A stretch of 64,000 bases of DNA from an uncultured Candidatus Peregrinibacteria bacterium (GTDB lineage: Bacteria > Patescibacteriota > Gracilibacteria > Peribacterales > Peribacteraceae), in assembly GCA_903854335.1 (NCBI GenBank), contig CAINVY010000011.1, positions 3,007-67,006 of the forward strand, read 5' to 3'. Shown piece by piece: positions 2,484 to 52,867 of the stretch. Within the stretch, counting starts at the first letter, position 1. Each line of letters starts with the position of its first letter. The notes below the pieces were generated by a model, which did no database searches, was not told where the DNA came from, and was given only the letters and a program-made list of their open reading frames with translations. Both the position numbers and the translations under genes were made by a program.

Positions 2484-2527
2484 GAACGAACGTGCACCAT
2501 GATAGGTGGACGTACGTTCACTGTCAA
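2484..2527 (-). promoter_or_regulatory. lexA promoter with two Cheo-type SOS boxes
   Basis: Minus strand reads TTGACA (2527-2522), a 17-nt spacer, then TATCAT (2504-2499). GAACGTACGTCC (2519-2508) fills the spacer and GCACGTTCGTTC (2495-2484) follows the -10. Each is a one-mismatch version of GAAC-N4-GTTC. Confidence 0.6.
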
Positions 2528-2563
2528 GATGCGCGAAAGGAAACCTTGTCGGTTTCCTCTCGC

Positions 2564-2629
2564 GGACTCTCTTTCCCTTCGAGGTATCGCTCCAGGCAGG
2601 CGGAGCCTGCCTTCGCGATGGTTTATTTT
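2564..2629. repeat. Intergenic hairpin repeat, about 66 nt (second copy at 26712-26778)
   Basis: ggactctctttcccttcgaggtatcgctccaggcaggcggagcctgccttcgcgatgg recurs nearly identically at 26712-26778 in the same orientation. The core hairpin is GGCAGGC-nnn-GCCTGCC. Confidence 0.8.
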
Positions 2630-2652: not shown

Positions 2653-3558
2653 TCATGCATCGATGACCGTCAGATCCTTGTTCTTCTTGAGCTCCAAATA
2701 GGTGATCGTCCACACCGCATCCTTGAAGACGTGGAGGTAGGCGAAGAAGTAGCTTGCGATGAAGATGAGGATCGTGCCGATGCCCGCTGCGACGAGAATC
2801 GTCATGAGCGGAGAGAGGATATTGATGAGAACGAAGCCGAGACCGATGATGATCGCCGGGATGAACAGGGCGAAGACGATGTTGATGATGATGCGGATGC
2901 TGATGACGAACAGGAGGAGCCACAGGAAGAGAATGTGTCCCGTGTAGCTCACGATGAATTTGAAGCTCGTACCAATGGCGGAGAAGATGCTTTCGCGGCT
3001 CACGACGACGGCGGGCTCGGCGAAGCTCGCAAGGAAGTGCAGCACGGAGGAGAGGAGCCAGAAGAAGGCGAGAATGCCGATGATGTAGAACTTCACGTCT
3101 CCGTCGATGTAGCGCAGGATGAGAGAGGAGAGCGTGACGACGTTCGTGATGCTGCCGAGGACGAAAATCTCGTGGATACCGACCATCGGGAAGAAGTTGT
3201 AGAAGGCGAGGATAGGTCCGCCCGTCAATTCTTCCTTCTTCGCCGCCTTCGCGCTGAGTCCGATGATCGCCCCCTTCGCGAGGCGCGGGAAAATCCACTC
3301 AATGACGAGCAGGAAGAGCACGGTGCCGATGATGGAGAAGAACGCCGTTTGTGAGACGTTATTTTGCAACCAGAAGACATCGTCGAAGAAGCCGACGGGA
3401 CGACCCTGGAAGTATCCCCAGATGAACCATGCTTGGTAGATGAGGAGCTTCGCGAGAAAGAGCGTTTCGAAGAAGGAGGAGAAGAGCCCCCACCGCCTCA
3501 GCGATTTCTCTCTGCGCGTAATCGTCCACGCCTCAGCGATGATCTCGCGTGGGGTCAT
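2653..3558 (-). CDS. Polytopic membrane protein, function unknown
   Basis: 301 aa with several hydrophobic helices. ATG start. The stop of the upstream LCP gene overlaps this gene's start by 4 nt. The antisense acidic ORF 2632-3354 is a shadow. Confidence 0.6.
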   Translation of the reverse strand: MTPREIIAEAWTITRREKSLRRWGLFSSFFETLFLAKLLIYQAWFIWGYFQGRPVGFFDDVFWLQNNVSQTAFFSIIGTVLFLLVIEWIFPRLAKGAIIGLSAKAAKKEELTGGPILAFYNFFPMVGIHEIFVLGSITNVVTLSSLILRYIDGDVKFYIIGILAFFWLLSSVLHFLASFAEPAVVVSRESIFSAIGTSFKFIVSYTGHILFLWLLLFVISIRIIINIVFALFIPAIIIGLGFVLINILSPLMTILVAAGIGTILIFIASYFFAYLHVFKDAVWTITYLELKKNKDLTVIDA

Positions 3559-5159: not shown

Positions 5160-5897
5160 TTATTTAAGGAACATCCACAGCAGCGCGAGAATGATCGGTT
5201 GATGCACCAGATAGATCAGCAGGGAATATCTACCGGGAAATGTGAGCGCGCGTTGCCATGGTTTCTCAAGCGGCAGATGGATCTGCAGAAGGGATCGACC
5301 GTAGAGGAGATTGCCAAGCGAAGCGCCTATCAGCACCGTGCCGAACCACGGAAAGAGAGGGAAGTAATCCACGGAAGCGAACGTTGATGGAGCAATTCCG
5401 AGCGGGAGCAGGAGGGAGGTCGAGACGGAAACGTCGTGAACCACCGGTGCGATCATGATGACGATCATTCCAAGGAGGAAATTCCATGCGCGAAGCGTGA
5501 AGAAGAATGGCAGGAGCAGGACGCTGGCTGCGATGAGGTGCAGGATGCCGAAGCGGACGTAGGTGTGAGGATCCACGATCGCCGTCGCGAGGCTTACGAG
5601 CATTCCGCAGACGAGAATCGCGAGGGCGCGGAGCGCGTACTTCTTCAGGCGAGCGTTGTAGGACGTTCCCTTTCGTTCCAACTTTTCCCAGGAGACAGCG
5701 AAGCTGACGCCGACGATCAGGAGGAAGAGATGCGCGGTGATGCGTTCGAGGAGGAGCCAGCCGAAGCTCCGGGGATCTATAGGAAAGGCGAAGAACGCGG
5801 AGAGATCGTAGACCGTGTGGTAGACGATCATCAGGAGGATGGCGAGTGCGCGCAGGAGATCGATTTCGCCGAAGCGTTCTAAGGTCGGATGCTTCAC
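5160..5897 (-). CDS. DUF1624-like integral membrane acyltransferase family protein
   Basis: 245 aa. RFGEIDLLRALAILLMIVYH N-terminal motif plus multiple TM helices. GTG start. Confidence 0.6.
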   Translation of the reverse strand: MKHPTLERFGEIDLLRALAILLMIVYHTVYDLSAFFAFPIDPRSFGWLLLERITAHLFLLIVGVSFAVSWEKLERKGTSYNARLKKYALRALAILVCGMLVSLATAIVDPHTYVRFGILHLIAASVLLLPFFFTLRAWNFLLGMIVIMIAPVVHDVSVSTSLLLPLGIAPSTFASVDYFPLFPWFGTVLIGASLGNLLYGRSLLQIHLPLEKPWQRALTFPGRYSLLIYLVHQPIILALLWMFLK

Positions 5898-5940
5898 GCG
5901 GAGAGTATAGGGGATCGTCGCCTTTCATTCTCGGGAGACC

Positions 5941-6012
5941 CTTGTCCTTCTTTCTCAAGGCGAGAAAGAAGGACGAAGAAAGCGCCTGCCTGCCGGCAGG
6001 CAGGCTCCGCGC
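5941..6012. repeat. 72-nt palindromic module (exact inverted copy at 36394-36465)
   Basis: I reverse-complemented 5941-6012 by hand and it equals 36394-36465 at 72/72 positions. It contains the palindrome CCTGCCTGCCGGCAGGCAGG and the hairpin TTCTTTCTC..GAGAAAGAA. Confidence 0.9.
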
Positions 6013-6120
6013 GCCAATGCTCCTCCGCTCGGCCCTGCGCCTTCCTCGTGGCAGCTCCAAGGTTTCGCTGCCGCTCGTCGGCGAAATGCCACGGCGGTTG
6101 CGACCGCCGTGGCACAGGGC
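6006..6120. repeat. gctccaaggtttcgc module (related copy at 36098-36205, same orientation)
   Basis: Both copies share ...gctccaaggtttcgc(t/a)gcc.. Each then ends in a different perfect hairpin: GCCACGGCGG..CCGCCGTGGC here and GTGTCCGCC..GGCGGACAC in the other copy. Confidence 0.7.
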
Positions 6121-6125
6121 GTTCC

Positions 6126-6330
6126 CCACCACCCCCCTGGCGCGCGGTTCCTACCGATGTGTGTTTTTTTGTGGGCGCCGCAGCGCGATAAATAAGAAAA
6201 ATTCCATGGTTCCCACTGGAAACCCCACCATCAATTTTGATAATTCCGCAAATTGTTACCGTTAGGAAGGTAACGGGGGTGTGGGGGGTGTAGGGAACCG
6301 AACAAGGTTCCCTCACCCCCCACGAAAAGA
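6126..6330. repeat. About 200-nt hairpin-rich element, copy A (candidate ncRNA or MITE; copy B at 52868-53068)
   Basis: Aligns with 52868-53068 over the whole length with scattered, mostly transition, differences. Hairpins: GCGC-CGCA-GCGC (6175-6186), ATGGT..ACCAT (6206-6231), GTTACC..GGTAAC (6255-6274), and GTGGGGGGTG-TA-GGGAACC-GAACAA-GGTTCCC-T-CACCCCCCAC (6281-6323). Confidence 0.8.
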
Positions 6331-6447
6331 TCATGACGAAGAATACGGTCAACTTCTTATTTAGCCCTGAGAAAGAAAGGCGATAATCATTTTCTCTCTT
6401 ACGAAGAAAGTGAAGAACTATCCGAGAAAAAGTGGCATAGTGTTCCC

Positions 6448-6900
6448 ATGCGTATCGTCCTTCAACGCGTTTCCTCCGCTTCTGTTTCCGTCGATGGCAG
6501 CATCATCGGATCTATCGGTCGAGGCTACGTACTTCTGCTTTGTGTGATGAAGGGGGACACCGAAGCGGATGTCGATCGTCTTGCGGAGAAGATCTGCGGT
6601 CTTCGTCTCTTTGATGGCGCGGACGGGAAGATCAATGATCGAAGTCTCCTCGAGATTGCCGGCGAGGTGCTCGTTATTTCGCAGTTCACGCTTGCTGCGG
6701 ATTTGGCGAAGGGACGCAGGCCCGATTACACGGCGGCAGCGGGTGCACAGGTTGCGCAGGAGCTCTATGAAGGTTTCCAAAAAAAGCTGTTGAGCTTAGG
6801 TGTGAAAATGGTGCAAGGGGGACGGTTTGGGGCCCTGATGCAGGTTTCCCTCGTCAATGACGGACCTGTCACTCTGTTGCTTGATACTGCGTTGTCGTAG
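6448..6900 (+). CDS. dtd: D-aminoacyl-tRNA deacylase
   Basis: 150 aa. MRIVLQRV...GRGYVLLLCV...VISQFTL...GRRP...NDGPVT are the canonical Dtd motifs. Confidence 0.9.
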   Translation: MRIVLQRVSSASVSVDGSIIGSIGRGYVLLLCVMKGDTEADVDRLAEKICGLRLFDGADGKINDRSLLEIAGEVLVISQFTLAADLAKGRRPDYTAAAGAQVAQELYEGFQKKLLSLGVKMVQGGRFGALMQVSLVNDGPVTLLLDTALS

Positions 6901-10236: not shown

Positions 10237-13200
10237 ATGTTCCAACCAGTCGATATGTCGCTCCTCCTCTCTCGGCGCAAGCGCATCGCGCTTGGGCTCG
10301 GTCTGATCGTGGTGCCTTCGCTCGTGGCATTCATGATCTTCAACGCCGGACAACACGGCGCTCTCCATAGTGCAGCGCCACTCGGTGCGTCCCTTACTGG
10401 TGACTCCACATGTGACGGAGACGGCAACTGTGAAGTGACAGGCACCGCAAGTCTCGATGGCGATACGACGGTGGCGGGGACACTGTATATCGACAATGGC
10501 GCTTCTCTCAATCTGAATGGACATTCCATCACGGTCAGTGGCAATACCACGAATGAAGGATACATTATGGACATGGTCGGAGGTGGAGTCTTTGGTGGAT
10601 CTATTACGAACAACGCGACAGGAGTGATTAATGAAGGAATATTCACCAGCTCCGTGGACAACTACGGCGGCACCATTGGGGCGTTTCCCGTTACCGATAA
10701 TTCAACCATGACATTCTATGGTTCGGTGACAAATGAAAATTATGCGGACCTCAATCACGGAACCTTCTATAACGGTGTAACAAATACCTCCAATTCCTAC
10801 ATCTCCGGCGGTTCCTTTTCGGACAGTCTTACTGTCACGAACAGCAACGGCGCGCTCATCCAGGGCGGGACATTCGAATCTTCAACTACCATCTATAACT
10901 ATGCCACTATCAATGGTTCCTTCGAGATCGACGGAACCGTGTACAACTATGGCAACATCTCCGGCGGCAGCACGCACTTCACGGGCAGGGTACAAAACAG
11001 CTACATCATTGCCGGTGGCTGGTTCAGCGGCGGCGGGTCGGTGGAGAACGAAACACTCGGAAGCATCACCGGCGGAGCATTCGATACCCCTGTAAGCAAT
11101 TATGGAACCGTGTACTTCGGATATTTCTCGTATCCGGTGCAAAACGGGAATTCCTTTGATTCTTCGGCGTATATCTATGGTGGAACATTCTCAAGCACGG
11201 TCGATAACTATGGGACGATTGATATGACGAGATCGAACGGCCCCACTCCGGATTTCAGCTCCGCCATGGTCACGCGAGAATCCGGCGACACGGTTCTCTG
11301 TCCTTCGGACAATGATCAATGCTTCGCAGAGTATTCCGCATCCACCTCTTCGTCTGATTCCACTTCTACATCATCCTCAGACTCCACTTCTACATCTTCT
11401 TCTGATTCTACTTCTTCGAATTCCTCCGGTTCCATGTATCACTGGATTGGCGGAGATCCGAACACACCGCATGGGTGGAATGATCCCGCAAACTGGTTGG
11501 AAGGCGAAGTGCCCGGGGAATTTGCCGGTGCGGACATCCCCGTTACCGATGGGTATAACCCCTTTATTTGGCAGCAGGATTCTAATGATGGATCGAACGG
11601 TATTACTCTCGGCACCGTGACGATCGAGGACGGGGCGATGATCAAAAGTAACGGTACGATCCATGGGGGAACATTTCATGGAAGAATATTTAATGATATT
11701 TATGGTGTTATTCTTGGAGGGACATATACCGATGTGGATAACTACGGCGAAATCGATATGACGGGAAGCAGTTTCGGTCCCCCGGATTTCAGCGCCGCCA
11801 CCCTGACGCGAGAGAATGGCGATTCGCTTCTCTGCCCCGAAGGAAAAAATTGGGATGTGAATTCCAATCGGTGTGCCGCCCCAACGTTTCACTGGATCGG
11901 AGGCGATACGAGCAACGGATTCAATGCAAACTCTTGGGATAATCCGGCAAACTGGGCGGAAGTTATCAACGCGCCACCTCCAAGCGGAGCAAACATTGTC
12001 ATTGATGGTAATTCGAGCAATTCCCCACTTATTCCTTACGGTTATGCCAATGATAACGTCGGCGGCGTGACGCTCGGCGACGTGACGATTCGAGATACAA
12101 GTTGGGGCATACAAAACATCGGTACCATCACAGACATCACCGGAACATTCACAGATAATTTTACCGGTGATGGCATCGAAAACTTCGGTGTCATCATGGA
12201 TATCAGCGGTACATTTACGTATAGCGGTACTGGTCGCGGTATTTACAATGATGCAGGCACGATCAACCACTTCACCGGATCCTTCGAAAACAGTGGCAAT
12301 GGTATCGGAATCCAGCAGTACGAGGGTGGTTCCATCTACGATATCAGCGGAACGTTTACCAACGATGGTGTATACAATCCTAATACCGATACCACCGGTA
12401 TGGGTATCGATAATATCGATGGCACCATCACGAATATCAGTGGAACGTTCGTTAGTAGGGGTGCTGGCATCGGTATCAACAATGAAGCTGCTGGCACCAT
12501 TGCCAATATCAGCGGGACTTTTAATAATAGCGGGAATGGTATTGGCATTCACAACCACGGCTCTATTGTCGATCTCAGCGGTGGCGGAGTGGCGCATCCA
12601 TCAGGTGGCTTCACGAATAATGGTAATAGCTACATTGTCGAAAACGAAGGCTCCATAGCCGCTATCAGTGGAGCTGTTTGGAATAATAGTTACGGTGTCG
12701 GAATTTACAATATGAATATCATTACCGATATCAGCGGAAGTGAGACAAACTATGGGAATAATGAAGTCGTCGACAACGAAGGCACAATTGTCGACATTAG
12801 CGGAACCATTACAAACATTGGAGGTGGTGCCGGCATCGCCAACAATGGAGGAATTATCGTTAACATCAGCGGATCCCTTGCCAATAATGGTCTTGGTCTT
12901 GGTCATGGTATCGACAATGAATATGGCGTCATCAATAACATCACCGGGACGTTATCCAATACTAGCGGTGGGTATGGCGTATACAATGATGGTGCCGTTA
13001 ACGGCGGAAATTATCCGGTGCTGGTATATAACGCAACTGGGGGATTCATTTATGGTGGAACATTCTTAAGCACTGTCGATAACTTTGGTACGATTGATAT
13101 GACTGGCTCAAGCTACGGTCCTCCGAATTTCGATGTTGCTACAGTTGTACGAGAATTCGGTGATAGGATCATCTGCCCTCTTAGCAATGATCAGTGTGCC

Positions 13201-16200
13201 AGCGCATTTGGCTCTGCTTCCTCCTCTTCCGATTCCACCTCTTCTTCCTCCTCCCCAGTTATTTCTACGTACCATTGGGTCGGTGGAAATACGGATAATG
13301 GCTACAGCGCAGACTCTTGGGATAACCCGGCAAACTGGCTGGAAGCCTCTATCCCCCCAAGCGGAGCGAACGTAGAAATTGGAGCGGATGCAACGAACAG
13401 CCCGGTGATTCCGATTGGTTATTCGAATAGCGAGGATGGAGTGACGCTCGGTGATGTCACTATTATGAATACGAATGGATTTGGTATTATTAACCACGCC
13501 GTCATCAACGACATCAATGGTACTATCACCGTATATACCAACGTTGCTGGTATCGATAACTACGGAACGATTACCGATATCACCGGAACACTCAATAATA
13601 ATATAAACGGCATTGGTATTCTTAATGAAATTGGTGCCACCATTACCAATATCAGCGGATACGTTTTCAATAACGGTAACGATCCCTACAATCAAGGCGC
13701 TGGCATCCTAAACTTGGGAACGATTACCGATATCAAAGGTACGCTTACGAACGTTTACGTCGGGTCAGGCATCGAAAACGATTATGGGGGCACGATTACT
13801 GACATTAGTGGAAGTATTATGAACATTAATAGTGGTATTGGAATTTATAATGATGGCGGAATGATCACGGACATCAGCGGAACTATCACGAATAGCGACA
13901 ACGCCGTTGGTATCGAAAACATCGGCACCATTAGCGATATGAGTGGAACCTTCACCACTACGAGTAATGCGGATGGTATCGATAACTACAATACCATTGA
14001 CGACATCAGCGGTACGCTCAACTTAGACGTGGGCTATCACGAGTCTATGGGAATCTATAACGACAGTTCCGGCATCATCTACGATATCGGCGGCAACGTT
14101 ACCACGAGCGGAGCAGGCATCGGTATTAAAAATCTCGGGACAATGGTCGATATGCGTGGATCGTTTGCCAATGGTTCCCATGTTGGAATCGAAAATGATG
14201 GAATAGTCGTCGATATCAGCGGAATCTTTGAGAATACGGGGGGCGTCACCGGTATCGATAATGAAGGGTCAATGATCGACGTCAGCGGAATTGTGGGGGA
14301 CGGCGGTAATGGATTGGGAGTTTTCAATAACGGCACCATCTACGGAGGTCATTACGCGGGGAGTGTGAACAACGAGAACGGCACTATCGATGTGACAGCC
14401 AACCAAGGAGGAACGGGTCTCCTCGCGGGTACGGCAACGATCAGCGGCGGTAACGTTGCCGTTGAAACGGATGGAACGATTGATATGCGCAATGGGCTTA
14501 TGTTCAGCAGTTTGTCTTCCTTCGTCAATCATCATACGGGTAATGCAAACATCACGTGTACTGCAGGGCTGGTCTGGAATGCGACGTCTCATGTTTGCGC
14601 GGCACAGACTTGCTTGGTCGACACCGATTGTTCGATTGGTTCGCAGTACTGCGCATTCGGCACGTGCAGCAATGGTTGTCGTGGCGGCACCTCCAGCGGT
14701 GCATATCTCTGTAATGTCACCGCCACGCCGCACGCCTACTACACGTCCTGTTCCGGCAATTCCGCCTGTGTGAACGGCGGTTGGTGCGGGCAGGACAGTC
14801 TGTGCCATACAAGCAATACGACCTGTTCTTCCAGTGCCGTCTGCCCCACGGGTGCGATGTGCGGCCAAGACAGCGCTTGCCACAATTCCTGCACTGCCGA
14901 TAGCCAGTGCCCTGCGGGTGGTGCAGCGCCGACGCTGATCAACGTTGGTTCGTACCCCAGAAAAATCGTTCTCTCTCCTGACGGGTTGAAAGCGTATGTC
15001 TTGAACAGCGCAAGCAATACCGTTTCCGTCATCTCGACGCAAAGTAATGCGGTTACGGATACGGTGAGCGTGGGAGCCGGCCCTGCCGCCATAGCGTTTT
15101 CTCCTGACGGAACAAAAGCGTATGTGCTGAATGCAACCGATAAGAGTGTGACGATCTTCAATACGGGCGACACGTCACAGAAGACACTCGTGAGCAACAT
15201 CGGTTCGAGTCCCCAAAGCATTGCTATTTCTCCGGATGGGTTGAAAGGGTATGTCGCAGATGAGGGAGGGGGCTTGAAGATATTTGATACGAGCAATACC
15301 GCAAATAGGTCGTCCGTGAGCGTCACCTATCCCATCAACGTTGCTGTCTCTCCGGATGGATCGAAAATCTTTGTGACGAGTGCGTTTTACGGCTCAATTA
15401 CGATCATTGATGCCAACAATACCGCGAACAGAACCAGCGTGAACATGGGGAGTTATATGGATGCCATCGCTGTAACTCCGGATGGATCGAAAGTGTTCGC
15501 GCTGGATTATGGCGGCAATAGCGTGAAGATATTCGATCCGAGTTACCCCGCTGGCAAGACATCCGTTCCTGTCGGCCAGAGTCCTTCCGGCATTGTCTTC
15601 TCTTCAGATGGGTTGCAGGCGTATGTGTTGAATGGCAACAGCGGCAACATTTCCGTCATCTCGACGCAAAGCAATACCGTTACGAAAACCATTACGGTTG
15701 GCAGTAACTTCGTTGGTATTGCCGTCACGTCGGATAATGCGAAGGCTTATCTGACAAACAATCTGTCCACCGGCCGGGTTTCCGTCATCGATCTTCTTGG
15801 CTACGCCTGTGCCACGGACAACCAGTGTCATCTGCAGAGTTCCTGCACGTCGGATAGCGACTGCTCCGCGAGCAAGTACTGCAGTGCGGGCATATGCGTC
15901 ACGGGTTCCCGTTCAAGCTCCAGCTCCAGCTCTCAATCGAGTCTTGAGTCGCATGACATACAGAGTTCTCCATCGAGCTCAAGTTCCAGCACCAGCTCCA
16001 GTAGTTCTTCCTGCAGTGCGGATGATGAGTGTGCTGCAAATACGTACTGCAGCGCATCGAGCTGCATCGCGGGTTGTCGCACAGGCACATTCCAGGGTGG
16101 CTACGTTTGTGTGAATCACAGCTTCGCGGCTTCCTGTGCGGACAATACGTCCTGTGATGTGAGCGGCGGATACCGCTGCGCCACGGACGGCGCATGCCAC

Positions 16201-17184
16201 GCACTTGCGAGCTGCGGGAGTTCCGACAGCAATTGTCCCGTGAACTATTACTGCGATACCGGGACGCACGCCTGTAGCTCGGGTTGCCGTGCCTCGAGCG
16301 AATGTTCGGCTGGTTCCGTGTGTACGAATCATGTTTGCACCGTCTCGTCTTCCAGCTCCACATCGACTTCAAGTTCTAGTTCCACTTCGACGAGCTCTAG
16401 TTCGAGTTCTGTTACCGTTGCGGAATCTTCTGCCAGTTCTGCTGCGATTGTGAGCGGAGGCGGAGGAGGAGGTGGTGGAAACCGCGGGACGACGGGCGGA
16501 TCGAATGTCACGACGATCGGGGCTTCGGGAGTGAAGGGAGTGAAGGGTGCGAATCAGGATCTCGAGAGTAGCTCCACTTCCTCCTTAAGTGCCTCGGAAC
16601 GTATGGAAGAAAGACGCGAAGCAAGACTCCAGGCGCGTTCTGCGTCTGCTTCTTCCGCTTCGAGCTCCGTTCATGCTGTCGCGACCGCGCAGCCATCGGA
16701 ATCTTCCGCATCTGCCTCCTCGGCAGAGTCAGCTCTGCGCGATGTATCGCAGAGTGCATGGTATGCGCAGGCAGTAACCGAAGCCGTTGCGAAGGGATGG
16801 ATGACGGCTCCAAATGGTATCTTCTCTCCCGCGGGATTCGTGACGGTCAACGATATGGTCAAGGCGCTCAATGCACTTCACGTGCAGAGTCCCTTCCTTG
16901 ATCGTCTGTCGGACACGCGCACCCTCGCGCTCACGAAGGGTGGGTTTCTCCAGATTATCACCGATGCGTTCTCATCCGAGCTTCAAGCTCTCCTGAAGAC
17001 AAAGACGCCGGCGGATACTGCGAGAGTCTGGCATGCCATTCCGGTTTCAGTTTCTCACTACGCTGCCGTGCGCATGAGCATCCTCGCAGGATGGATCTCG
17101 ATGCCGCAGGGAAGCTTCCATGGTCTCGATCCCATCACCCGAGCGGAAATGGCGAAGATCCTCCTGAACGTGGTGGGGCTGTGA
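10237..17184 (+). CDS. Giant (2315 aa) multidomain cell-surface protein
   Basis: N-terminal TM anchor. Three HW(I/V)GG..W(D/N)(D/N)PANW modules of the PATR (autotransporter-associated beta-strand) type at about 11439, 11888 and 13270. Dozens of ISGT(F/I)xN..GxGIxN beta-helix-like repeats. YVTN-type beta-propeller repeats (SPDG.KAYV.N..sntVSVI) at about 14930-15790. Cys-rich modules, Ser/Thr linkers and a Gly8 run. Two C-terminal SLH-like repeats. Confidence 0.85.
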   Translation: MFQPVDMSLLLSRRKRIALGLGLIVVPSLVAFMIFNAGQHGALHSAAPLGASLTGDSTCDGDGNCEVTGTASLDGDTTVAGTLYIDNGASLNLNGHSITVSGNTTNEGYIMDMVGGGVFGGSITNNATGVINEGIFTSSVDNYGGTIGAFPVTDNSTMTFYGSVTNENYADLNHGTFYNGVTNTSNSYISGGSFSDSLTVTNSNGALIQGGTFESSTTIYNYATINGSFEIDGTVYNYGNISGGSTHFTGRVQNSYIIAGGWFSGGGSVENETLGSITGGAFDTPVSNYGTVYFGYFSYPVQNGNSFDSSAYIYGGTFSSTVDNYGTIDMTRSNGPTPDFSSAMVTRESGDTVLCPSDNDQCFAEYSASTSSSDSTSTSSSDSTSTSSSDSTSSNSSGSMYHWIGGDPNTPHGWNDPANWLEGEVPGEFAGADIPVTDGYNPFIWQQDSNDGSNGITLGTVTIEDGAMIKSNGTIHGGTFHGRIFNDIYGVILGGTYTDVDNYGEIDMTGSSFGPPDFSAATLTRENGDSLLCPEGKNWDVNSNRCAAPTFHWIGGDTSNGFNANSWDNPANWAEVINAPPPSGANIVIDGNSSNSPLIPYGYANDNVGGVTLGDVTIRDTSWGIQNIGTITDITGTFTDNFTGDGIENFGVIMDISGTFTYSGTGRGIYNDAGTINHFTGSFENSGNGIGIQQYEGGSIYDISGTFTNDGVYNPNTDTTGMGIDNIDGTITNISGTFVSRGAGIGINNEAAGTIANISGTFNNSGNGIGIHNHGSIVDLSGGGVAHPSGGFTNNGNSYIVENEGSIAAISGAVWNNSYGVGIYNMNIITDISGSETNYGNNEVVDNEGTIVDISGTITNIGGGAGIANNGGIIVNISGSLANNGLGLGHGIDNEYGVINNITGTLSNTSGGYGVYNDGAVNGGNYPVLVYNATGGFIYGGTFLSTVDNFGTIDMTGSSYGPPNFDVATVVREFGDRIICPLSNDQCASAFGSASSSSDSTSSSSSPVISTYHWVGGNTDNGYSADSWDNPANWLEASIPPSGANVEIGADATNSPVIPIGYSNSEDGVTLGDVTIMNTNGFGIINHAVINDINGTITVYTNVAGIDNYGTITDITGTLNNNINGIGILNEIGATITNISGYVFNNGNDPYNQGAGILNLGTITDIKGTLTNVYVGSGIENDYGGTITDISGSIMNINSGIGIYNDGGMITDISGTITNSDNAVGIENIGTISDMSGTFTTTSNADGIDNYNTIDDISGTLNLDVGYHESMGIYNDSSGIIYDIGGNVTTSGAGIGIKNLGTMVDMRGSFANGSHVGIENDGIVVDISGIFENTGGVTGIDNEGSMIDVSGIVGDGGNGLGVFNNGTIYGGHYAGSVNNENGTIDVTANQGGTGLLAGTATISGGNVAVETDGTIDMRNGLMFSSLSSFVNHHTGNANITCTAGLVWNATSHVCAAQTCLVDTDCSIGSQYCAFGTCSNGCRGGTSSGAYLCNVTATPHAYYTSCSGNSACVNGGWCGQDSLCHTSNTTCSSSAVCPTGAMCGQDSACHNSCTADSQCPAGGAAPTLINVGSYPRKIVLSPDGLKAYVLNSASNTVSVISTQSNAVTDTVSVGAGPAAIAFSPDGTKAYVLNATDKSVTIFNTGDTSQKTLVSNIGSSPQSIAISPDGLKGYVADEGGGLKIFDTSNTANRSSVSVTYPINVAVSPDGSKIFVTSAFYGSITIIDANNTANRTSVNMGSYMDAIAVTPDGSKVFALDYGGNSVKIFDPSYPAGKTSVPVGQSPSGIVFSSDGLQAYVLNGNSGNISVISTQSNTVTKTITVGSNFVGIAVTSDNAKAYLTNNLSTGRVSVIDLLGYACATDNQCHLQSSCTSDSDCSASKYCSAGICVTGSRSSSSSSSQSSLESHDIQSSPSSSSSSTSSSSSSCSADDECAANTYCSASSCIAGCRTGTFQGGYVCVNHSFAASCADNTSCDVSGGYRCATDGACHALASCGSSDSNCPVNYYCDTGTHACSSGCRASSECSAGSVCTNHVCTVSSSSSTSTSSSSSTSTSSSSSSVTVAESSASSAAIVSGGGGGGGGNRGTTGGSNVTTIGASGVKGVKGANQDLESSSTSSLSASERMEERREARLQARSASASSASSSVHAVATAQPSESSASASSAESALRDVSQSAWYAQAVTEAVAKGWMTAPNGIFSPAGFVTVNDMVKALNALHVQSPFLDRLSDTRTLALTKGGFLQIITDAFSSELQALLKTKTPADTARVWHAIPVSVSHYAAVRMSILAGWISMPQGSFHGLDPITRAEMAKILLNVVGL

Positions 17185-17220: not shown

Positions 17221-17778
17221 TCAGGGACTACGAAAGCGGGGTCCCTGATTTTGAAAGTTTGTAAGTGAAGATCGTTCTTCTTTCTCAAGACGAGAGTTTC
17301 GCCTTTCTTTCTCAGGGCAAGAACGCGTATCGCTTCTCGATACGTTCCCGCGTGTCATGGTGAGGTGCTCGCGCTTTCGCCTTCGTGGCTTTTTGCTCAG
17401 CAAAAAGCACCTCAGGCTGACACGGGAAGAAACTGAAGGGAGAAGCGAGCCACGAACCATCACGCGGGAACAATGGTATTTCCTCGGTTTTCCTCCTCGT
17501 CTCCGAGAAAAATGTTCCAGTGCTTTCTGATCCCTTTTGATCAAGGCTTCCTTTTTCTTTCGAGCCCATCCCTTCACCTGCTTCTCAAAATCAATCGCAT
17601 CCGTGATCTCCGGGAACTCCGCGGCGTACACGAGTTCAACCGGACGGCGGCGATGCGTGTACGCCTTCGGGTCCCATCCTGTCTGGTGCTCCCCGATACG
17701 CTTCTCCAGGTCATTCGTCACGCCGACGTAGCATGAACCGTCGGCGCAGCGGAGCATGTAGACGAAATAAGAATTCAC
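17221..17778 (-). CDS. GIY-YIG nuclease superfamily protein with a repeat-derived C-terminal extension
   Basis: YFVYMLRCADGSCYVGVTNDLEKRIGEHQTG...PVELVYAAEF is a UPF0213-type GIY-YIG core. A GTG at 17778 sits just before the first beta strand. The frame then reads about 90 codons through repeat 17352-17423 before stopping. Confidence 0.55.
   Translation of the reverse strand: MNSYFVYMLRCADGSCYVGVTNDLEKRIGEHQTGWDPKAYTHRRRPVELVYAAEFPEITDAIDFEKQVKGWARKKKEALIKRDQKALEHFSRRRGGKPRKYHCSRVMVRGSLLPSVSSRVSLRCFLLSKKPRRRKREHLTMTRGNVSRSDTRSCPEKERRNSRLEKEERSSLTNFQNQGPRFRSP
17352..17423. repeat. GTGTCA..TGAGGTGCT / AGCACCTCA..TGACAC palindromic element, copy a (inverted relative to copies b and c)
   Basis: Its reverse complement aligns with 22093-22163 and 52794-52866. 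The outer arms are conserved. The inner hairpin is GCTTTTTGC..GCAAAAAGC. Confidence 0.85.
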
Positions 17779-17851
17779 GACGACAGAATACCCTCCCTCA
17801 AAAAAATCCCCCGCACTGCGGGGGATTTTCAAAAGCGAGGTTAGAAATCCA

Positions 17852-18142
17852 TCACTTTCCCTCTGCAGATCGCTGTGCCATGAAGCAATCCTTGCAGAGA
17901 ACGGGCTTGCCGCCCTCCTCGACTGGTCGAGGCTGGAAGGGGACCTCACATTGCGCACCGCACTTCGCGCACACTGCCGGATACATCTGGCGTGTGGTGA
18001 GGCGCTGCGACTTGCGTGCCGTGCGACAGTCCTTGCATCGCTGCGGGGCAGAGAGGTTCCGGGACGCGTAGAACTCCTGTTCGCCCTCCGTGAAGGCAAA
18101 CGTGTTCCCGCAATCGCGGCAGGTGAGCTGCTGATCAGCCAT
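17852..18142 (-). CDS. Zinc-ribbon protein (duplicated CxxC...CxxC)
   Basis: 96 aa. LTCRDCGNTFAFTEGEQEFYASRNLSAPQRCKDCR plus a second half, CAKCGAQCEVPF...CKDCF. ATG start. Confidence 0.7.
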   Translation of the reverse strand: MADQQLTCRDCGNTFAFTEGEQEFYASRNLSAPQRCKDCRTARKSQRLTTRQMYPAVCAKCGAQCEVPFQPRPVEEGGKPVLCKDCFMAQRSAEGK

Positions 18143-18232
18143 AAAAAAGAAAGAAGGAAGTAAAAGCGCAATGTTCCTTCCTCCATGTTTCTCGGGGACC
18201 GATAGGACTGGTTTGAAGGAAATGCCAAGGAC

Positions 18233-18321
18233 ACTGTAGGGATAAAGCCTTGTATTGTCAAATTTCTCTCATACTGGACGAGGAAGTGAGAAATTGACAA
18301 AGAAACATATATTGCTATGGT
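18233..18321. promoter_or_regulatory. Mirror-image divergent promoter pair
   Basis: TTGTCAAATTTCTC (18255-18268) and GAGAAATTGACAA (18288-18300) form an inverted repeat that carries two opposed TTGACA -35 boxes. Plus strand: TTGACA (18294-18299), 16 nt, TGcTATGGT (18313-18321). Minus strand: TTGACA (18262-18257), 18 nt, TACAGT (18238-18233). Confidence 0.5.
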
Positions 18322-18347
18322 GATCTCTGCCTTTCCCATCTTTATTT

Positions 18348-20744: not shown

Positions 20745-21137
20745 TTACTTGAGAGAAACTTTCGCGCCTGCGGCTTCGAGCTTCGTCTTCATTTCGTCGG
20801 CCTCCTTCTTGGCGACGCCTTCCTTGACCATCTTCGGAGCGCCGTCGACGAGAGCCTTGGCCTCGCCGAGAGGGAGACCCGTGATCTCGCGGACGACCTT
20901 GATCACGGCGATCTTCTGCGCGCCGGAATCGGTGAGCTCCACATTGAAGCTCGTTTTCTCTTCGCCGGCATCGGCTGCGCCAGCGGCGGGGGCTGCGGCG
21001 ACTGCGGCGGGGGCTGCGGCGGAGATGCCGTATGTCAGCTCCATGTACTTCACGACGTTATTCAGCTGAACGACATTCAGCTTCTCGAGCGCGTCGATGA
21101 CTGCTTGCTCTTCTTTCACGAGGGTGGCGTCGGCCAT
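20745..21137 (-). CDS. rplL: 50S ribosomal protein L7/L12
   Basis: 130 aa. Ala-rich hinge and the C-terminal [36 protein letters not shown]. Confidence 0.95.
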
Positions 21138-21167
21138 GGGTAGAGGGGGAAAAGGTAGATAAGTGAT

Positions 21168-21195
21168 CAGTGTTCAGTGAACAGTGAACAGTGGA
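21168..21195. repeat. Tandem heptamer array CAGTG(T/A/G)(T/A), four units, in the rplJ-rplL spacer
   Basis: CAGTGTT CAGTGAA CAGTGAA CAGTGGA. It also contains the palindrome TGTTCAgTGAACA. Confidence 0.8.
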
Positions 21196-21197
21196 AA

Positions 21198-21737
21198 TTA
21201 GGAAGGTTGCTCAGCAGATTTCTTCTTCGCGAGTTCCGCGAGGGAACGGGCGAAGCCGGAGAGCGGGGAGGAACAGATTTGGGCGAAGGAACGGAGAGGT
21301 GATTGCAGCATTCCCGCGAACATCGCGAGCAACACCTGGCGGCCCGGGATCTGTGCGAGGATCTTGGCGTCGGACTGCGAGAGGAGCTTGCCGTCGAAGA
21401 GGGCGGCGAGAAACGAGACCTGCGGGTGATCCTTGGCAAACTTGTAGGCGATTTGCGCTCCGGCGATGGGATCGGTGTAACTGAAGATGCAGGCGACAGG
21501 GCCTTCCATCATCGCATCCTCGAACTCGGGGAGTCCCTGCTCCTGAGCGGCGATGCGGATGAGGGTTTTCTTCGCAACTTTCATCTCCGCGCCTCCCGCA
21601 CGCAATTTCTTGCGCAGATCACTCACGTCGGACACCTTCATGCCGATGTAGTGTGTGAAGATGACGGATGAGGCTTTCGAGAGCTTCTCCTTGATATCCT
21701 TGAGCTGCTCGGCTTTCTGCTGCTTTGTGAGGGCCAT
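21198..21737 (-). CDS. rplJ: 50S ribosomal protein L10
   Basis: 179 aa. The MALTKQQKAEQLKDIKEKL... L10 pattern, located directly upstream of rplL. Confidence 0.95.
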   Translation of the reverse strand: MALTKQQKAEQLKDIKEKLSKASSVIFTHYIGMKVSDVSDLRKKLRAGGAEMKVAKKTLIRIAAQEQGLPEFEDAMMEGPVACIFSYTDPIAGAQIAYKFAKDHPQVSFLAALFDGKLLSQSDAKILAQIPGRQVLLAMFAGMLQSPLRSFAQICSSPLSGFARSLAELAKKKSAEQPS

Positions 21738-21959: not shown

Positions 21960-22092
21960 GAGCAGTTCTCATCCGTTGCTCTTTTTTAGTTCCAATGAAA
22001 ACCGCCTGCGTCAGCTGGTGGGTGAAGAGGTAGCGATACGCTATGGCAAGCGTGATGGTTCGTGGCTCGCATCCCTTTTCAGTTTGTTTCCA

Positions 22093-22163
22093 TGTCAGCC
22101 TGAGGTGCTTTTTGCAAAGTAAAAAGCCACGAAGGCTTAGGCGCGAGCACCTCACCATGACAC
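22093..22163. repeat. GTGTCA..TGAGGTGCT palindromic element, copy b
   Basis: tgtcagcctgaggtgctttttgcaaagtaaaaagccacgaaggcttaggcgcgagcacctcaccatgacac. Lies between tig and the rplJ promoter. Confidence 0.85.
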
Positions 22164-22262
22164 GCTTGCTGGATGCCGGACAAGTGAAGCTTGCTTTGTA
22201 AGAACTCCGCCAGAGCACACTGGCAGTAGTTCATTTTTTGACGTTCCGTCGAGAAACGCCTT

Positions 22263-26673: not shown

Positions 26674-26711
26674 GTTAAGCATGAGAAAGAAACCTACGGC
26701 TTCTCTCTCAT

Positions 26712-26778
26712 GGACTCTCTTTTCCCTCAATGGTGTCGCTCCAGGCAGGCAGAGCCTGCCTTCGCGACGGATTGTTTA
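26712..26778. repeat. Intergenic hairpin repeat (copy of 2564-2629)
   Basis: ggactctcttttccctcaatggtgtcgctccaggcaggcagagcctgccttcgcgacgg. Confidence 0.8.
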
Positions 26779-27153
26779 ATATAGGTGTGCAATGAGATTG
26801 AATACATCTTTGTTTGGTGAGCTCGCCAGTTCGCAGAAAAAAAAGAGAGACGCAGCCATGAAGACTGCGCCCCAAACCCTCCTGGGTTGGTGTGGCCAAG
26901 TGTCAGGAGAGAATGGAAGTGTAGACGAGTGGAAAATGTGTCTCAAGAGTGGATCCATGTTTTCAATTAAAGGGGCGCAATTCGCGAGAATTGTGCCCCG
27001 ATGGCCACTGTCTCTGGCTGATGAATCAGAACGAGACAGTAGGACGAGAAAATTTTATACCAAATTAAATTGATGACAACTTCTCTTGTTTTGCGTCTTC
27101 GCATCGCTTCTGCGCAATAGAAAAGTGCTTAGAAACGAAGATTCCAAAGGATT

Positions 27154-33545: not shown

Positions 33546-33620
33546 GGTGCCGTAGCCAAGTAGTAAGGCAGGGGTCTGCAAAACCCCCATGCGTGGGTGC
33601 GATTCCCACCGGCACCTCCA
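33546..33620 (+). tRNA. tRNA-Cys (GCA), CCA encoded
   Basis: Acceptor stem GGTGCCG/CGGCACC. Anticodon stem GGGGT/ACCCC with loop CTGCAAA. T arm GTGGG-TGCGATT-CCCAC. 3' TCCA. Confidence 0.9.
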
Positions 33621-33650
33621 GAATTTTGCGTACGCAAAATTCTGGAGGTG
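33613..33650 (+). other. Perfect 38-nt palindrome that begins inside the tRNA-Cys 3' end
   Basis: CACCTCCAGAATTTTGCGT/ACGCAAAATTCTGGAGGTG. No U tract follows. Confidence 0.85.
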
Positions 33651-35417
33651 CGTTCGCGACTATGTCGCTCACTTTTATTTTATTGGGAGGAGAGCCTCCC
33701 AACCCCTCCCGTGGGAGCGAGAGATGTGGTGAATTCAGTGACGTTTGGGCTTCCAATTTTGGGGAGTTGAATCCGGAAGGCAGACTGGTACTCTTCCAGA
33801 GATTCTCCCAAATTTCATGAACAGTCCTAGAGCACTCGTGATGCGCGTGATAGCCGTAACCACTATTTTTCTTGGCGTCATAGCAGTTTCCTTTGTTGTT
33901 TTTTTCTCAGGTGGGATTGGCCTTGCCGAACTCATAAATATGAACGCGAAAAAGTCAGCTAATCCTTGTGGGAAATTGGTTCTAGACACCGAAACTGGTC
34001 TTTGTATGGAGCAGTCTGTCTGGGACTTGTTTAACAATGTCATCCATCCCAATCTTCAAACTTGTGCGGACTGTTCCAATTTACCCGTTCCAGTTATTTC
34101 ACTCAATAATGGCACGCAAACTTCAACATTTGCGGTGTATCTTAGCGGCAGGAAGTTACTGGATTGGGTAACGCCAGGTCTCACAGCAGATAGCATCGTC
34201 CAGAGTGATTCAGGAAACGTCCTTCCTCCCGGGAGTACAAGTGCACAAATTTTGCGAGTGACTGGTACAAATTCCATCAGGTATCTCATCCCGTCAGAGG
34301 GGCAGTATTTTCAGAATCGTTATGAAGTATTATCTCCTCAAAAAACAACGGAAGTCCATTATGACATTGTGAAGAAAACAGGGGTGTATGGGAGTGCGTA
34401 CTTTTTTGTCCAAGCAGCGCAGCCGCATGTAGACATGGACGCAGTCACTCGTAGTTTTGATGCGATTGCGTTAAGTGAGAGCAGGCTTGCGAATCTCTCA
34501 AAGCCTGACCCGTATTATGTTCTTGCCATGCCATATCTTATCGGAGGGGTCTTCGGAGGTGAGGGCGATTTCTATGTTGGGAATCATATATTAGAAGCCA
34601 ATTTCGGAGGTGAAAAATACAGTGATATGTTTCCAACTGTTCTCACACAGGAAGCGAGCCACGAGTACGTGCACGATTTGCAGGATAAAATGAATCTGGA
34701 AGCATCGTACACTGCCTCCTTTTGGGTGGAAGGGATGGCGGATGCCGTTTCGATTTTCAGTGGTTTCCGAACATGGAACGATGTTGGCTTTGGCACAGTA
34801 TTGGAGCCGGGATGTTCCGATGAAAATGGCAACGCTTCGGAGCCTCACTCTCTTGGCAGATGTGTGTTTAAGCATCTCGATCAAGAACACTATCTCACTG
34901 CAGATTTTTTCAGGCGGCTCTTCCACCCCCAAGGTCAATATCCTGGATTGAATTCTTGTACGTCAGACTTTTCGGATCCCACCTGCATTTCTGATTTGAC
35001 AAAACTTCTAACATTTTTGACTGGTAAGGACATGAGAACATTCGTCCAGACAGCATTATTAAAAGCCCCTCCTACTATTGATCCTTCAAAGTGCAAGCTT
35101 GGTGCCGAGTGTCTTCCGCAGTCCCAGATAGAACCTTGTTTCACGCCTCCCAAAAAATGTTCTCCGGCGAAGACGAGTGTGAAATGTGGTACGAATAATG
35201 GAGAAACGTATTTGTGTCAGGAATGCAAAAAAGGATCCTTTCTTGATTCCTCGCACCATCATTGTGAGTAATCATGTTCTTAGAACAAAGATTATTGCGA
35301 ACTGATACTGAGATATTTTGTTGGTACTGTTTCTTCACAACAGGGGAGCTATGGCGGTTGCGATACGGTGCAATGCGGACCTCCAGAATTTTGCGTACCT
35401 TCCCGTGGGAGCGAGAG
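33614..35417 (+). mobile_element. Candidate tRNA-Cys-associated islet bounded by direct repeats
   Basis: acctccagaattttgcgtac occurs at 33614-33633 and 35379-35398 (20/20). tcccgtgggagcgagag occurs at 33707-33723 and 35401-35417 (17/17). The enclosed gene is visibly lower in G+C. No integrase is present. Confidence 0.35.
33817..35271 (+). CDS. Secreted/anchored protein with an HExxH zinc-metallopeptidase-like motif and a Cys-rich tail
   Basis: Start moved to MNSPRALVMRVIAVTTIFLGVIAVSFVVFF (TM/signal). HEYVH with a downstream VEGMADA. Eight Cys in the last 60 aa. Confidence 0.6.
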   Translation: MNSPRALVMRVIAVTTIFLGVIAVSFVVFFSGGIGLAELINMNAKKSANPCGKLVLDTETGLCMEQSVWDLFNNVIHPNLQTCADCSNLPVPVISLNNGTQTSTFAVYLSGRKLLDWVTPGLTADSIVQSDSGNVLPPGSTSAQILRVTGTNSIRYLIPSEGQYFQNRYEVLSPQKTTEVHYDIVKKTGVYGSAYFFVQAAQPHVDMDAVTRSFDAIALSESRLANLSKPDPYYVLAMPYLIGGVFGGEGDFYVGNHILEANFGGEKYSDMFPTVLTQEASHEYVHDLQDKMNLEASYTASFWVEGMADAVSIFSGFRTWNDVGFGTVLEPGCSDENGNASEPHSLGRCVFKHLDQEHYLTADFFRRLFHPQGQYPGLNSCTSDFSDPTCISDLTKLLTFLTGKDMRTFVQTALLKAPPTIDPSKCKLGAECLPQSQIEPCFTPPKKCSPAKTSVKCGTNNGETYLCQECKKGSFLDSSHHHCE

Positions 35418-35533: not shown

Positions 35534-36028
35534 ATGACGAAGAAACATGCCAAAGGCGTCGTTGTCTGTAGCATCGTTGCCGGTCTCATCCTGACGGCGA
35601 GCGTCGTGAGTTCACATTCCGGAAGCGCACTTCTCGGGTCGGTGATTGGAACGCTTCCGATGGGATCGCAGCAGATTCCCATTCTCTCGCGTGGAGAAGT
35701 TCTGCGACGCGCAACGAATAGCGGATCGTCCTTTGTACCCGCCGTGACGCATGACTGTGCACTCGCGACGGAAATCTCTTCGGCATTCCTCTCCGCTGTT
35801 TCGGACAATGCCAATGCTCGAGGTCTGGCTGCACAGGTTCAGGCGAAATTCATGAGCACGTATTGCCCGCATGGTTCGGCTGCACTTTCTTCCTCTTCTT
35901 CTCTTTCTGCTTCCGAGCATTCGGTATCGATCGACAATCACTGCGCACGCTTCGATATGAAGTCGGCGCGCTTTACGGCGTGCATGGGAGCGCAGCAGAG
36001 CGGGATTTTGTATGAGCAGGGGAAGTGA
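35534..36028 (+). CDS. Small secreted protein, function unknown
   Basis: 164 aa with an N-terminal signal-like segment (KGVVVCSIVAGLILTASVVSS). Confidence 0.55.
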   Translation: MTKKHAKGVVVCSIVAGLILTASVVSSHSGSALLGSVIGTLPMGSQQIPILSRGEVLRRATNSGSSFVPAVTHDCALATEISSAFLSAVSDNANARGLAAQVQAKFMSTYCPHGSAALSSSSSLSASEHSVSIDNHCARFDMKSARFTACMGAQQSGILYEQGK

Positions 36029-36393
36029 TGTGAGGTGATCTCAGGGAAGAGGCTTCTCTTTCTTTGTAAGCGCGACAAAGAAAGAGAGAAAGAAAGCGCT
36101 GGCGCGCCGAAGCTCATCATCCGGCTCTGTGCCTTTGCTCCGGCTGCTCCAAGGTTTCGCAGCCGTCGCGTCGGCGTGGTGTCCGCCTGTGGCGGACACA
36201 GAGCCTCGCCTCTACCTTCAACAACTCGTTCTCGTGTGATAAGCAACGGCGCGCGACCGCGAAGGTTGTTCTACGTTCCATCAGCATATACAAAGAATGC
36301 CGGAGCCGCGCACCACGGGGTGGAATAGCACCGAATGGTTTGAGCTAAGCAAAAGATATTCTCTGAATCGGAATGGCACCCGTTAGCATTGGT

Positions 36394-36465
36394 GCGCGGA
36401 GCCTGCCTGCCGGCAGGCAGGCGCTTTCTTCGTCCTTCTTTCTCGCCTTGAGAAAGAAGGACAAG
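36394..36465. repeat. 72-nt palindromic module (exact reverse complement of 5941-6012)
   Basis: Hand-derived reverse complement is identical at 72/72 positions. The flanks remain similar for about 10 more nt. Confidence 0.9.
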
Positions 36466-36599
36466 AGATTCATGCAATAAAGATGTTGAATTGAGAAAGA
36501 AAGACAATATCCGTCGTCTTGAGAAAGATGGACGAGTAAAACTTAAAAGATTCCTCATTGAGTTCACATCGCTTCTCTGGTAACGTTTCCCGAAATCCT

Positions 36600-49476: not shown

Positions 49477-49497
49477 ATTCCCTGTATACTCCCTGCG

Positions 49498-52866: not shown

Positions 52867-52867
52867 G

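Follow-up and report, generated by a model that had tools for sequence, protein, structure and literature searches.

X, a dispersed hairpin-rich sequence of a Candidatus Peribacteraceae genome, and its reading as a module of a mosaic repeat family

What kind of sequence is a hairpin-rich element of about 200 nt that occurs twice, in one orientation and among different genes, in a small bacterial genome? The question is raised by a stretch of 64,000 nt (hereafter the window) from an uncultured Candidatus Peregrinibacteria bacterium of the Peribacteraceae (contig CAINVY010000011.1, positions 3,007 to 67,006), for which a preliminary description, made without database searches, had proposed a non-coding RNA (ncRNA) or a non-autonomous mobile element. 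The element, here called X, is best read as a non-autonomous mosaic repeat that resembles miniature inverted-repeat transposable elements (MITEs), bacterial interspersed mosaic elements (BIMEs) and other clusters of repetitive extragenic palindromes (REP), or BOX elements; it is not a proven small-RNA gene. With a probability that we put at roughly 55%, X is one of the modules of a family of intergenic repeats in this Candidatus Peribacteraceae genome that are lineage-specific, non-coding and hairpin-forming and are built as mosaics of palindromic units. The modules of the family are dispersed and arranged in varied orders, the block around one copy of X has inverted boundary motifs, the corresponding loci of relatives lack X, and the blocks coincide with breakpoints. 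Thus, of the two original proposals the repeat or mobile element is the better supported, because there are at least three copies, mosaics, absence in relatives, synteny breakpoints and uncompensated differences between copies, whereas the specific ncRNA that had been proposed finds no support.

The X repeat and the mosaic blocks that contain it

The core of copy A (6133-6327, + strand) and copy B (52871-53066, + strand), delimited by blastn and alignments, match in direct orientation with 89.8% identity over 197 nt (E 3.9e-69), and both MAFFT and global alignment place the beginning of the similarity at about 6126/52868 and its end at 6327-6330/53066-53068. The two copies are therefore alike over the extent first described, as direct repeats 46.7 kb apart, and the sequences that flank them are unrelated by alignment and blastn. 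They differ by 11 transitions, 6 transversions and 4 indel events (8 columns), so that the earlier characterization of the differences as mostly transitions is roughly right. The gene contexts had also been read correctly: copy A is located between a HGSNAT_cat/DUF1624 gene (5160-5897, - strand) and dtd (6448-6900, + strand), and copy B lies about 650 nt past a TrwB/VirD4-like gene (49411-52212, + strand) and is bordered on its other side by glyA (SHMT, - strand), ending approximately 5-7 nt before the glyA stop codon (53074-53076), such that the minus strand of X starts 5 nt after that stop.

The notion of a self-contained unit of about 200 nt, on the other hand, proved to be a mis-delimitation. 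Its left 20 nt or so (6126-6146) are part of a separate module, W-HP (6047-6127, + strand), which comprises a W hairpin with the invariant loop AAGGTTTC, an HP hairpin (6087-6114) and a tail, adjoins copy A, and occurs without X in a related genome. In this relative (L011), whose glyA is 90% identical, W-HP is followed by CACCCCCCGTGGCGCGCC, homologous to 6132-6146, and then by divergence; the first 20 nt or so of the described unit are thus the tail of W-HP and not X proper. To the right, copy A runs on to 6381, and the block at locus A as a whole, with Z, W, HP, X and an extension in that order, measures about 438 nt (5944-6381). It begins with a boundary motif hairpin (GTCCTTCTTTCTCAAGGC / GAGAAAGAAGGAC, 5944-5974, recognized in the fold of 5935-6385 and by motif search), continues through Z, W, HP and X to a 36-nt right extension (6328-6363, + strand), and terminates with the right boundary motif GCCCTGAGAAAGAAAGGC (6364-6381, + strand). 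The outer 18-mers (5944-5961 and 6364-6381) are inverted copies of one another at 15/18 positions and represent the block-bounding motif GCCTTTCTTTCTCAGGGC; the stretch 5935-6385 folds with its ends paired and a z of -7.9. Locus B is composed differently, namely of a boundary motif found by motif search (GGAGAAAGAAAGGC, 52718-52731, - strand), a palindromic module Y with terminal inverted repeats (52746-52868) that adjoins X on the left, X itself, and the glyA stop codon.

The remaining modules recur in the window in other combinations. Z (5941-6021, - strand), which comprises the perfect palindrome GCCTGCCTGCCGGCAGGCAGGC, a T-rich tail and the motif hairpin and receives a terminator-like call on the minus strand, has an inverted second copy at 36385-36465 (+ strand) that is 99% identical. 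Comparison of the window with itself detected further members of the Y family at 17350-17465 and 22050-22165 (inverted), and copies of the W repeat at 6009-6083 and 36102-36176. A covariance model of W-HP (R2) matches the window at 6047-6127 and 36139-36211, the relative L011 at 2515-2587 (- strand), and a metagenome contig, L009, at 2701-2781 (- strand); in each W-HP copy the HP hairpin is at the same position, and its sequence differs.

Copies elsewhere, related loci and the possible mode of spread of X

The same population is present in several ENA assemblies (the BUCK21-1 series, ERZ27313xxx). In a 1.8-kb contig from this sample series (L008), the stop codon of a CAP/SLH gene is followed at once by an A-type block that is 100% identical to 5941-6349 (409 nt) and then about 75% identical over 6350-6378; since its right end differs from that of copy A, a third insertion context is proven. 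Four other assemblies of the population are interrupted within the part of copy A that forms the 43-nt hairpin, which is what a sequence present in several copies would be expected to cause. A copy from another species was recognized through an open reading frame (ORF), P0002, which lies over the element between secE and a signal-peptidase gene in sample ERZ1426827, a sample that also contains a Peribacteraceae dtd at 71% identity. Read from the ORF frames, this copy retains the right motif, the extension, the 3′ domain of X, the central hairpin, a GCGC hairpin, Z and the left motif hairpin; its 3′ domain is identical to copy A at the amino acid level over about 30 codons, and the right boundary motif is present at both of its ends. 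The extension is common to L008 and the P0002 copy and is found neither in copy B nor in L009. The latter, a JGI contig of 60% GC, harbors between the ends of groEL and clpB a 68-nt 3′ domain, a W-HP module and a palindrome resembling the core of Z, with an interior that cannot be aligned with X; W-HP and the 3′ domain have the same order and orientation as in locus A. In the JGI metagenomes L009 was the one true homolog, accompanied by one chance hairpin (L010). A search of the GTDB species genomes with the 3′-hairpin pattern gave 0 matches, four patterns run against IMG/VR returned nothing or 17-nt chance matches, and plasmid and phage collections contained no match. The search of relatives with covariance models that the preliminary description had advised covered about 317 kb, comprising related and other loci; neither R2 nor R1, a model of the 3′ domain, revealed copies beyond those already known.

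The closest relatives of the flanking genes are found in Candidatus Peribacteraceae or Peribacteria, with 86-90% identity for glyA (metagenome-assembled genomes) and 71% or less for dtd. X is absent downstream of glyA in four relatives (L011-L014), in which a short spacer is followed by a co-directional gene; a fifth (L015) contains a Y-like palindromic element in the opposite orientation after glyA (1286-1394). In a Peribacteraceae contig from the same samples (L024), the gene order is LytR, HGSNAT, a zinc-finger gene, rplL, rplJ, dtd and relA, and neither X nor any other repeat is present in its 20 kb, including the region upstream of dtd. In the window, rplJ-rplL is situated about 14 kb away (20745-21737) with a copy of Y just upstream of it (22050-22165), and mosaic A fills the gap between HGSNAT and dtd. 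A strain variant (L005) is 98.4% identical over 4 kb and diverges near the boundary motif beside locus B; its colinear alignment ends at position 52685, about 33 nt beyond the motif. Taken together, the rearrangement relative to L024 and the divergence of L005 place the repeat blocks at synteny breakpoints.

If X is a repeat of this kind, its copies would have spread as DNA, either through a trans-acting enzyme, encoded elsewhere in the genome, that targets the terminal motif or the hairpins, or by recombination between repeats, and would have decayed afterwards. The hairpins near the ends (the 3′ domain of X, W and HP) may have been conserved, with compensation of changes in their stems, because they are recognized by the spreading machinery or by a host protein. 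REP elements block 3′ exonucleases or pause transcription, and as a by-function the 43-nt hairpin could do the same in the 3′ untranslated region (UTR) of glyA, the CAP/SLH gene and groEL.

Several observations weigh against this reading. X alone has no terminal inverted repeats (left end CCACCACCCCCC, right end CACCCCCCACGAAA). No target-site duplication was found at X or at its block in A, B or L008, the number of clean junctions being too small to exclude one of 2-3 nt; the check for such duplications at further copies that had been suggested thus yielded no flanking direct repeat at L008. Searches with Pfam and NCBIfam found no transposase, integrase, reverse transcriptase or Y1/RAYT-like gene in the 64-kb window, in which several ORFs belong to no family. 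The loci without X in relatives are also rearranged, so that a precise empty site was not obtained. Few copies were observed: public data yielded two ORF clusters from 5.8 billion proteins and a single metagenome contig. The perfect identity of L008 over 409 nt could reflect gene conversion or a short-read chimera, in which case the contig may be partly an assembly product. Finally, the 3′ domain of L009, about 86% identical and carrying a paired insertion in its stem, and the W hairpin, with its invariant loop and covarying stems, fit a functional RNA.

Folding, transcription signals and competing explanations

Does X behave as a structured RNA? Copy A folds more stably than shuffled sequences on either strand (z -5.6 on the plus strand and -5.05 on the minus strand), as does copy B to a lesser degree (z -3.97 and -2.26), and the stretch 6080-6335 gives a z of -6.2. 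The energies of the two strands are nearly equal (-90.2 vs -88.2 kcal/mol for A and -73.3 vs -72.7 kcal/mol for B), and neither folding energy nor G-U counts gave any signal for assigning a strand to X. Only three hairpins are unchanged between the copies, namely those at 6202-6222, 6255-6274 and 6281-6323, fewer than the four once drawn for each copy: the stems of the left half differ, and the ATCAA..TTGAT hairpin is lost in B. The central hairpin (TTCCATGGTTCCCACTGGAAA, 6202-6222, + strand) has the same sequence in copy B (52942-52962) and is recognizable in translated P0002 (GTMEF). The hairpin GTTACC-GTTAGGAA-GGTAAC (6255-6274, + strand) corresponds to 52995-53014 in copy B, and its loop contains AGGAGG in B and L009. 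The conserved 3′ domain (6261-6328, + strand) comprises the loop GTTAGGAAGG, the 43-nt compound hairpin (6281-6323, loop GAACAA) and GAAAA; its counterpart in copy B (53001-53067, + strand) has a weakened outer stem. The 43-nt compound stem of the preliminary description does exist and is perfect in A, whereas copy B (53021-53062) has lost 1 nt and has a G>T substitution in the 5′ arm, both of them uncompensated. Changes between A and B fall proportionately in paired (13 in 118) and unpaired (10 in 87) positions, and of the 13 pairs of copy A that they touch, 10 are broken, 3 are kept as G-U and 0 are compensated, with the minus strand behaving likewise. A and B have thus drifted apart without regard to the predicted fold.

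Protein coding is rejected for X. The longest ORFs across the copies (5894-6352 and 52754-53062) are frameshifted relative to each other and differ by mostly non-synonymous substitutions, which bears out the earlier judgment that they are non-coding. Translated searches, two of them with reading frames against 5.8 billion proteins and one with a profile against 1.84 billion representatives, retrieved only P0001 (the element in L008), P0002 and unrelated repetitive proteins; P0001 and P0002 are spurious ORFs on other copies. Membership in a known RNA family, including HEARO, ribozymes and small RNAs, is rejected as well. The Rfam comparison that had been recommended detected three tRNAs and nothing else in the window at gathering thresholds, and permissive scans (E up to 10) of L008, which covers the whole A block, of 35900-36700 and of 52200-53100 found no credible family; the best sub-threshold matches on the element were chance miRNA/FsrA similarities with E of 0.05 or more. 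A consensus scan for promoters and terminators called a single sigma70-like site (6217-6244, + strand), in copy A only and just 5′ of the 3′ domain, and no intrinsic terminator inside X in either copy. The minus-strand ATGGT..ACCAT hairpin, previously taken for a terminator, has a weak stem, with a T-run that begins 5-6 nt after it. The minus-strand RNA of about 135 nt that this terminator was supposed to define is left with no promoter or terminator called there, strands of equal energy, no Rfam match and no structure-preserving substitutions between A and B.

One alternative to the mosaic repeat is that X, or the unit from W-HP to X, constitutes a structured ncRNA gene with a few paralogous copies, whose loops AAGGUUUC, GUUAGGAGG and GAACAA would serve as binding sites. 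Several features described above favor it, namely the strong fold of A and of 6080-6335, the constant order and orientation of W-HP and the 3′ domain in locus A and L009, and the position of the sigma70-like site. In addition, L009 retains the 43-nt hairpin through a paired C/G insertion and scores 86 bits with R1 at 2412-2478, against 97 bits for copy A. Of the homologs with compensatory changes that the preliminary description had made a test of its proposal, this is one; between A and B there are no such changes. The W stem, which reads GGCAGC/GCTGCC, GGCTGC/GCAGCC, GGCTCC/GGAGCC and CACGGA/TCCGTG in four sequences of three organisms, covaries around its invariant loop. RNAalifold predicts 17 pairs in the W-HP fold; in 7 of these, including 3 pairs of the W stem, both sides have changed. 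A long-range CACCCCC/GGGGGUG pairing closes the multiloop of X in A and is kept in B by G-U, on the plus strand only. However, no Rfam match emerged even at the permissive threshold, no promoter and terminator pair is common to the copies, both strands fold equally well, most of the touched pairs are broken with no double changes, and the orientation to neighboring genes is not constant. Moreover, the modules are separable and reordered: B lacks W-HP, and the 36-kb locus of the window and L011 lack X. Compensated stems are known also from palindromic REP/REPIN repeats that act at the DNA level, and the compensation in W and the 3′ domain fits recognition of hairpins as RNA or as DNA alike. An ncRNA gene is, on balance, unlikely, and W-HP, which also has no Rfam match, is a better candidate than X for a structure under selection.

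A comparably doubtful explanation holds that X is a cis-acting RNA co-transcribed with its neighbor, serving on the minus strand as a 3′-UTR stabilizer or an unconventional terminator, or that it is the source of a short plus-strand transcript that extends in antisense into the end of the adjacent gene. In each of the five known contexts a gene is found no more than about 120 nt from the hairpin end of X. The minus strand is directly downstream of a gene in three of them: it starts 5 nt past the stop codon of glyA, immediately behind that of the CAP/SLH gene (together with the boundary motif), and at a distance of about 65 nt from that of groEL; a U-rich run also follows the central hairpin on this strand. 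On the contrary, copy A and the copy at P0002 are turned toward the beginnings of genes and not toward their ends, groEL in L009 already has a canonical terminator ahead of X, the scan calls no terminator in X, and glyA of the relatives manages without it. A function of this type would, in any case, be a by-product of the repeat and not an alternative origin for it.

It is also tempting to speculate that W-HP and the 3′ domain of X together form a structured RNA family of 300-440 nt that is specific to Peribacteraceae-like bacteria of the Candidate Phyla Radiation (CPR), carried on a mobile unit and binding protein or RNA through the conserved loops AAGGUUUC, GUUAGGAGG and GAACAA. Such an RNA might, for instance, guide an unrecognized mobile-element enzyme or serve as its scaffold, or regulate adjacent genes; we regard this combination as rather improbable.

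Still less probable is the reading of X as an end module of a larger autonomous element located elsewhere, that is, a non-autonomous derivative of the IS200/IS605 type with subterminal hairpins and possibly a guide-RNA scaffold. Sharp boundaries, the lack of terminal inverted repeats and of a target duplication in X, hairpin-rich ends, and a conserved domain situated exactly at one end beside variable flanks (copy B and L009) would suit an element of this type. Nevertheless, there is no TnpA, TnpB or IscB-like gene in the window and no match to HEARO or another Rfam family, the hairpins of the left end bear no relation to those of the right, the three readable left junctions have no conserved tetra- or pentanucleotide beside them, and the extension, which is shared by three copies, is not a variable guide. 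That the pair is trivial, a segmental duplication including genes, the att sites of an integrated element or an assembly artifact, as direct repeats 46.7 kb apart might suggest, can be all but dismissed, because the flanks and the flanking genes show no similarity, the interval holds housekeeping genes (rplJL, gyrA, ruvA, hrcA) and two tRNAs, the identity is 90% and not about 100%, and the same junctions appear in independent assemblies of other samples (glyA-X-Y in L005-L007 and X-dtd in L001-L004). Two related candidates were rejected separately: att sites or an island, because of the housekeeping genes between the copies, and the template/variable pair of a diversity-generating retroelement, because the substitutions affect all four bases, both copies are intergenic and no reverse transcriptase is present in the window.

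Other modules of the window and known repeat systems

The boundary motif is itself more widespread than the blocks of X. Its 14-nt form TGAGAAAGAARGNC occurs 17 times in the window against 3.5 occurrences expected, clusters at the edges of repeat blocks in both orientations and in irregular tandem arrays, and is often located 25-150 nt upstream of gene starts; its sites include 5920-5974, 6368-6381, 17274-17314, 26682-26695, 36085-36098, 36432-36533 and 52718-52731, and exact copies are limited to loci of this species. Since the motif is a dispersed short repeat, its role as a block terminus is only a candidate one; it may be a terminal repeat, a site bound by a protein or a site of recombination. 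Y is an element of about 120 nt with imperfect terminal inverted repeats of 21-23 nt (GCGTGTCATGGTGAGGTGCTCGC...); in two copies, the 4-5 nt immediately outside the ends are complementary to each other and differ between the copies. A further repeat, V, is represented by two 92-nt copies of 82% identity (2537-2628 and 26686-26777) with the hairpin AGGCAGGC-GGA-GCCTGCCT; one lies at the 3′ end of the ORF 1808-2635, and the other follows a boundary motif just upstream of the ORF 26792-27073.

The W-HP copy at 36 kb is situated in a gene-free region of 520 nt (36035-36560) upstream of a purP-like gene (DUF1246/DUF1297). This region consists of a motif hairpin, W-HP, a unique structured stretch of about 200 nt, Z and a motif array, folds with a z of -4.7, and has no Rfam match; on the plus strand Z takes the form of a GC hairpin followed by a T-rich tail, and the region could be a transcription unit that ends at Z. 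Palindromes also adjoin tRNA genes. At 39533-39590, the HP palindrome CCACGGCGTTCGCGAACGCCGTGG begins exactly at the CCA end of tRNA-Ala, with a degenerate second copy next to it, such that the last 7 nt of the tRNA (TCCACCA) occur three times within 58 nt, and the spacer after HP in locus A (…CCCCACCA) resembles a shortened version of this arrangement. At 33612-33651, the 5′ arm of a perfect 40-nt palindrome is the 3′ end of tRNA-Cys (CACCTCCAG...CTGGAGGTG).

Three other features of the window deserve mention. An ORF at 17221-18339 (- strand) encodes a GIY-YIG nuclease domain (amino acids 191-263) with weak similarity to group I intron endonucleases, and its last 120 codons or so cross the first additional copy of Y and two copies of the boundary motif, indicating that the repeat either lengthened the reading frame or was inserted into it. 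To the left of locus B, in gene-free sequence, a promoter-like TTCATA-17-CATAAT lies about 35 nt upstream of a hairpin followed by a T-run (TATGGCTTACAAAAGCCATATTTTATTT; 52566-52649, - strand), which could specify a very short transcript or represent merely a terminator. Near an SLH-domain gene, an ORF of 2315 amino acids (10237-17184, + strand) with internal 66-nt-periodic and longer repeats (families D1, D3-D5, D8 and D10) probably encodes a giant surface protein.

The literature searched on Peribacteria and the CPR yielded no description of interspersed palindromic or MITE-like repeats; the repeats mentioned in the paper on five complete Peribacteria genomes are one direct repeat and some short repeats near the origin. 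If the mosaic-repeat reading of X is correct, modular repeats at breakpoints would help to explain genome rearrangement and the fragmentation of assemblies in these lineages, would supply markers for strain typing, and would point to a mobilizing activity. Should the conserved hairpins prove to function as RNA or to bind proteins, they would count among the earliest regulatory or mobile RNAs with a lineage-specific distribution to be reported from the phylum.

Among known systems, derivatives of IS200/IS605 elements (PATEs) and omega/reRNA scaffolds resemble X in their sharp ends without inverted repeats or duplications, their subterminal hairpins and a structured domain at one end. They differ in that the end hairpins of X are unlike each other and that no conserved target tetranucleotide, no tnpA, tnpB or iscB in the window and no HEARO match accompany it. 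MITEs such as Correia (CREE) of Neisseria and ERIC/IRU elements resemble block A, whose 18-nt inverted ends (15/18) are candidate termini, and Y, with its imperfect terminal inverted repeats of 21-23 nt, and have in common with them a short length (less than about 600 bp, against about 200 nt for X and 438 nt for block A), dispersal, a non-coding nature and an end-to-end fold. By contrast, terminal inverted repeats are lacking in X itself, the copies analysed showed no target-site duplication, and no known parent insertion sequence has the same ends.

The BIME, REP and REPIN sequences of Enterobacteria and Pseudomonas are similar in being intergenic clusters of GC-rich imperfect palindromes of variable order and orientation, joined by short linker motifs and often placed just after gene ends, in which stem changes can be compensated and by-functions as a terminator, a messenger RNA stabilizer or a recombination site are possible. 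The palindromes described here (the 22-nt core of Z, HP of 24-28 nt, W and the motif hairpin) form clusters of several unrelated classes within longer modules. The units are larger and more varied (hairpins of 20-43 nt in modules of 75-200 nt) than those of BIMEs; few copies were seen, their sequences do not resemble known REP, the 64-kb window showed no RAYT gene, and the host is a CPR bacterium with a genome of about 1 Mb. CPR genomes are, as a rule, small and streamlined, at approximately 1 Mb. The BOX elements of Streptococcus pneumoniae (boxA-boxB-boxC) likewise consist of a few modules in varied number and order, and form intergenic, non-coding units of 100-450 nt with a strong fold and no transposase of their own. 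Their sequences are unrelated to those of X, and BOX keeps the fixed arrangement A-Bn-C, whereas the modules here are arranged as Z-W-HP-X, W-HP-...-Z and Y-X. The repeat sequences of the window match no known family, and interspersed hairpin repeats as such are well known in other bacteria; as matters stand, the finding is of an ordinary type, and what is unusual is the host.

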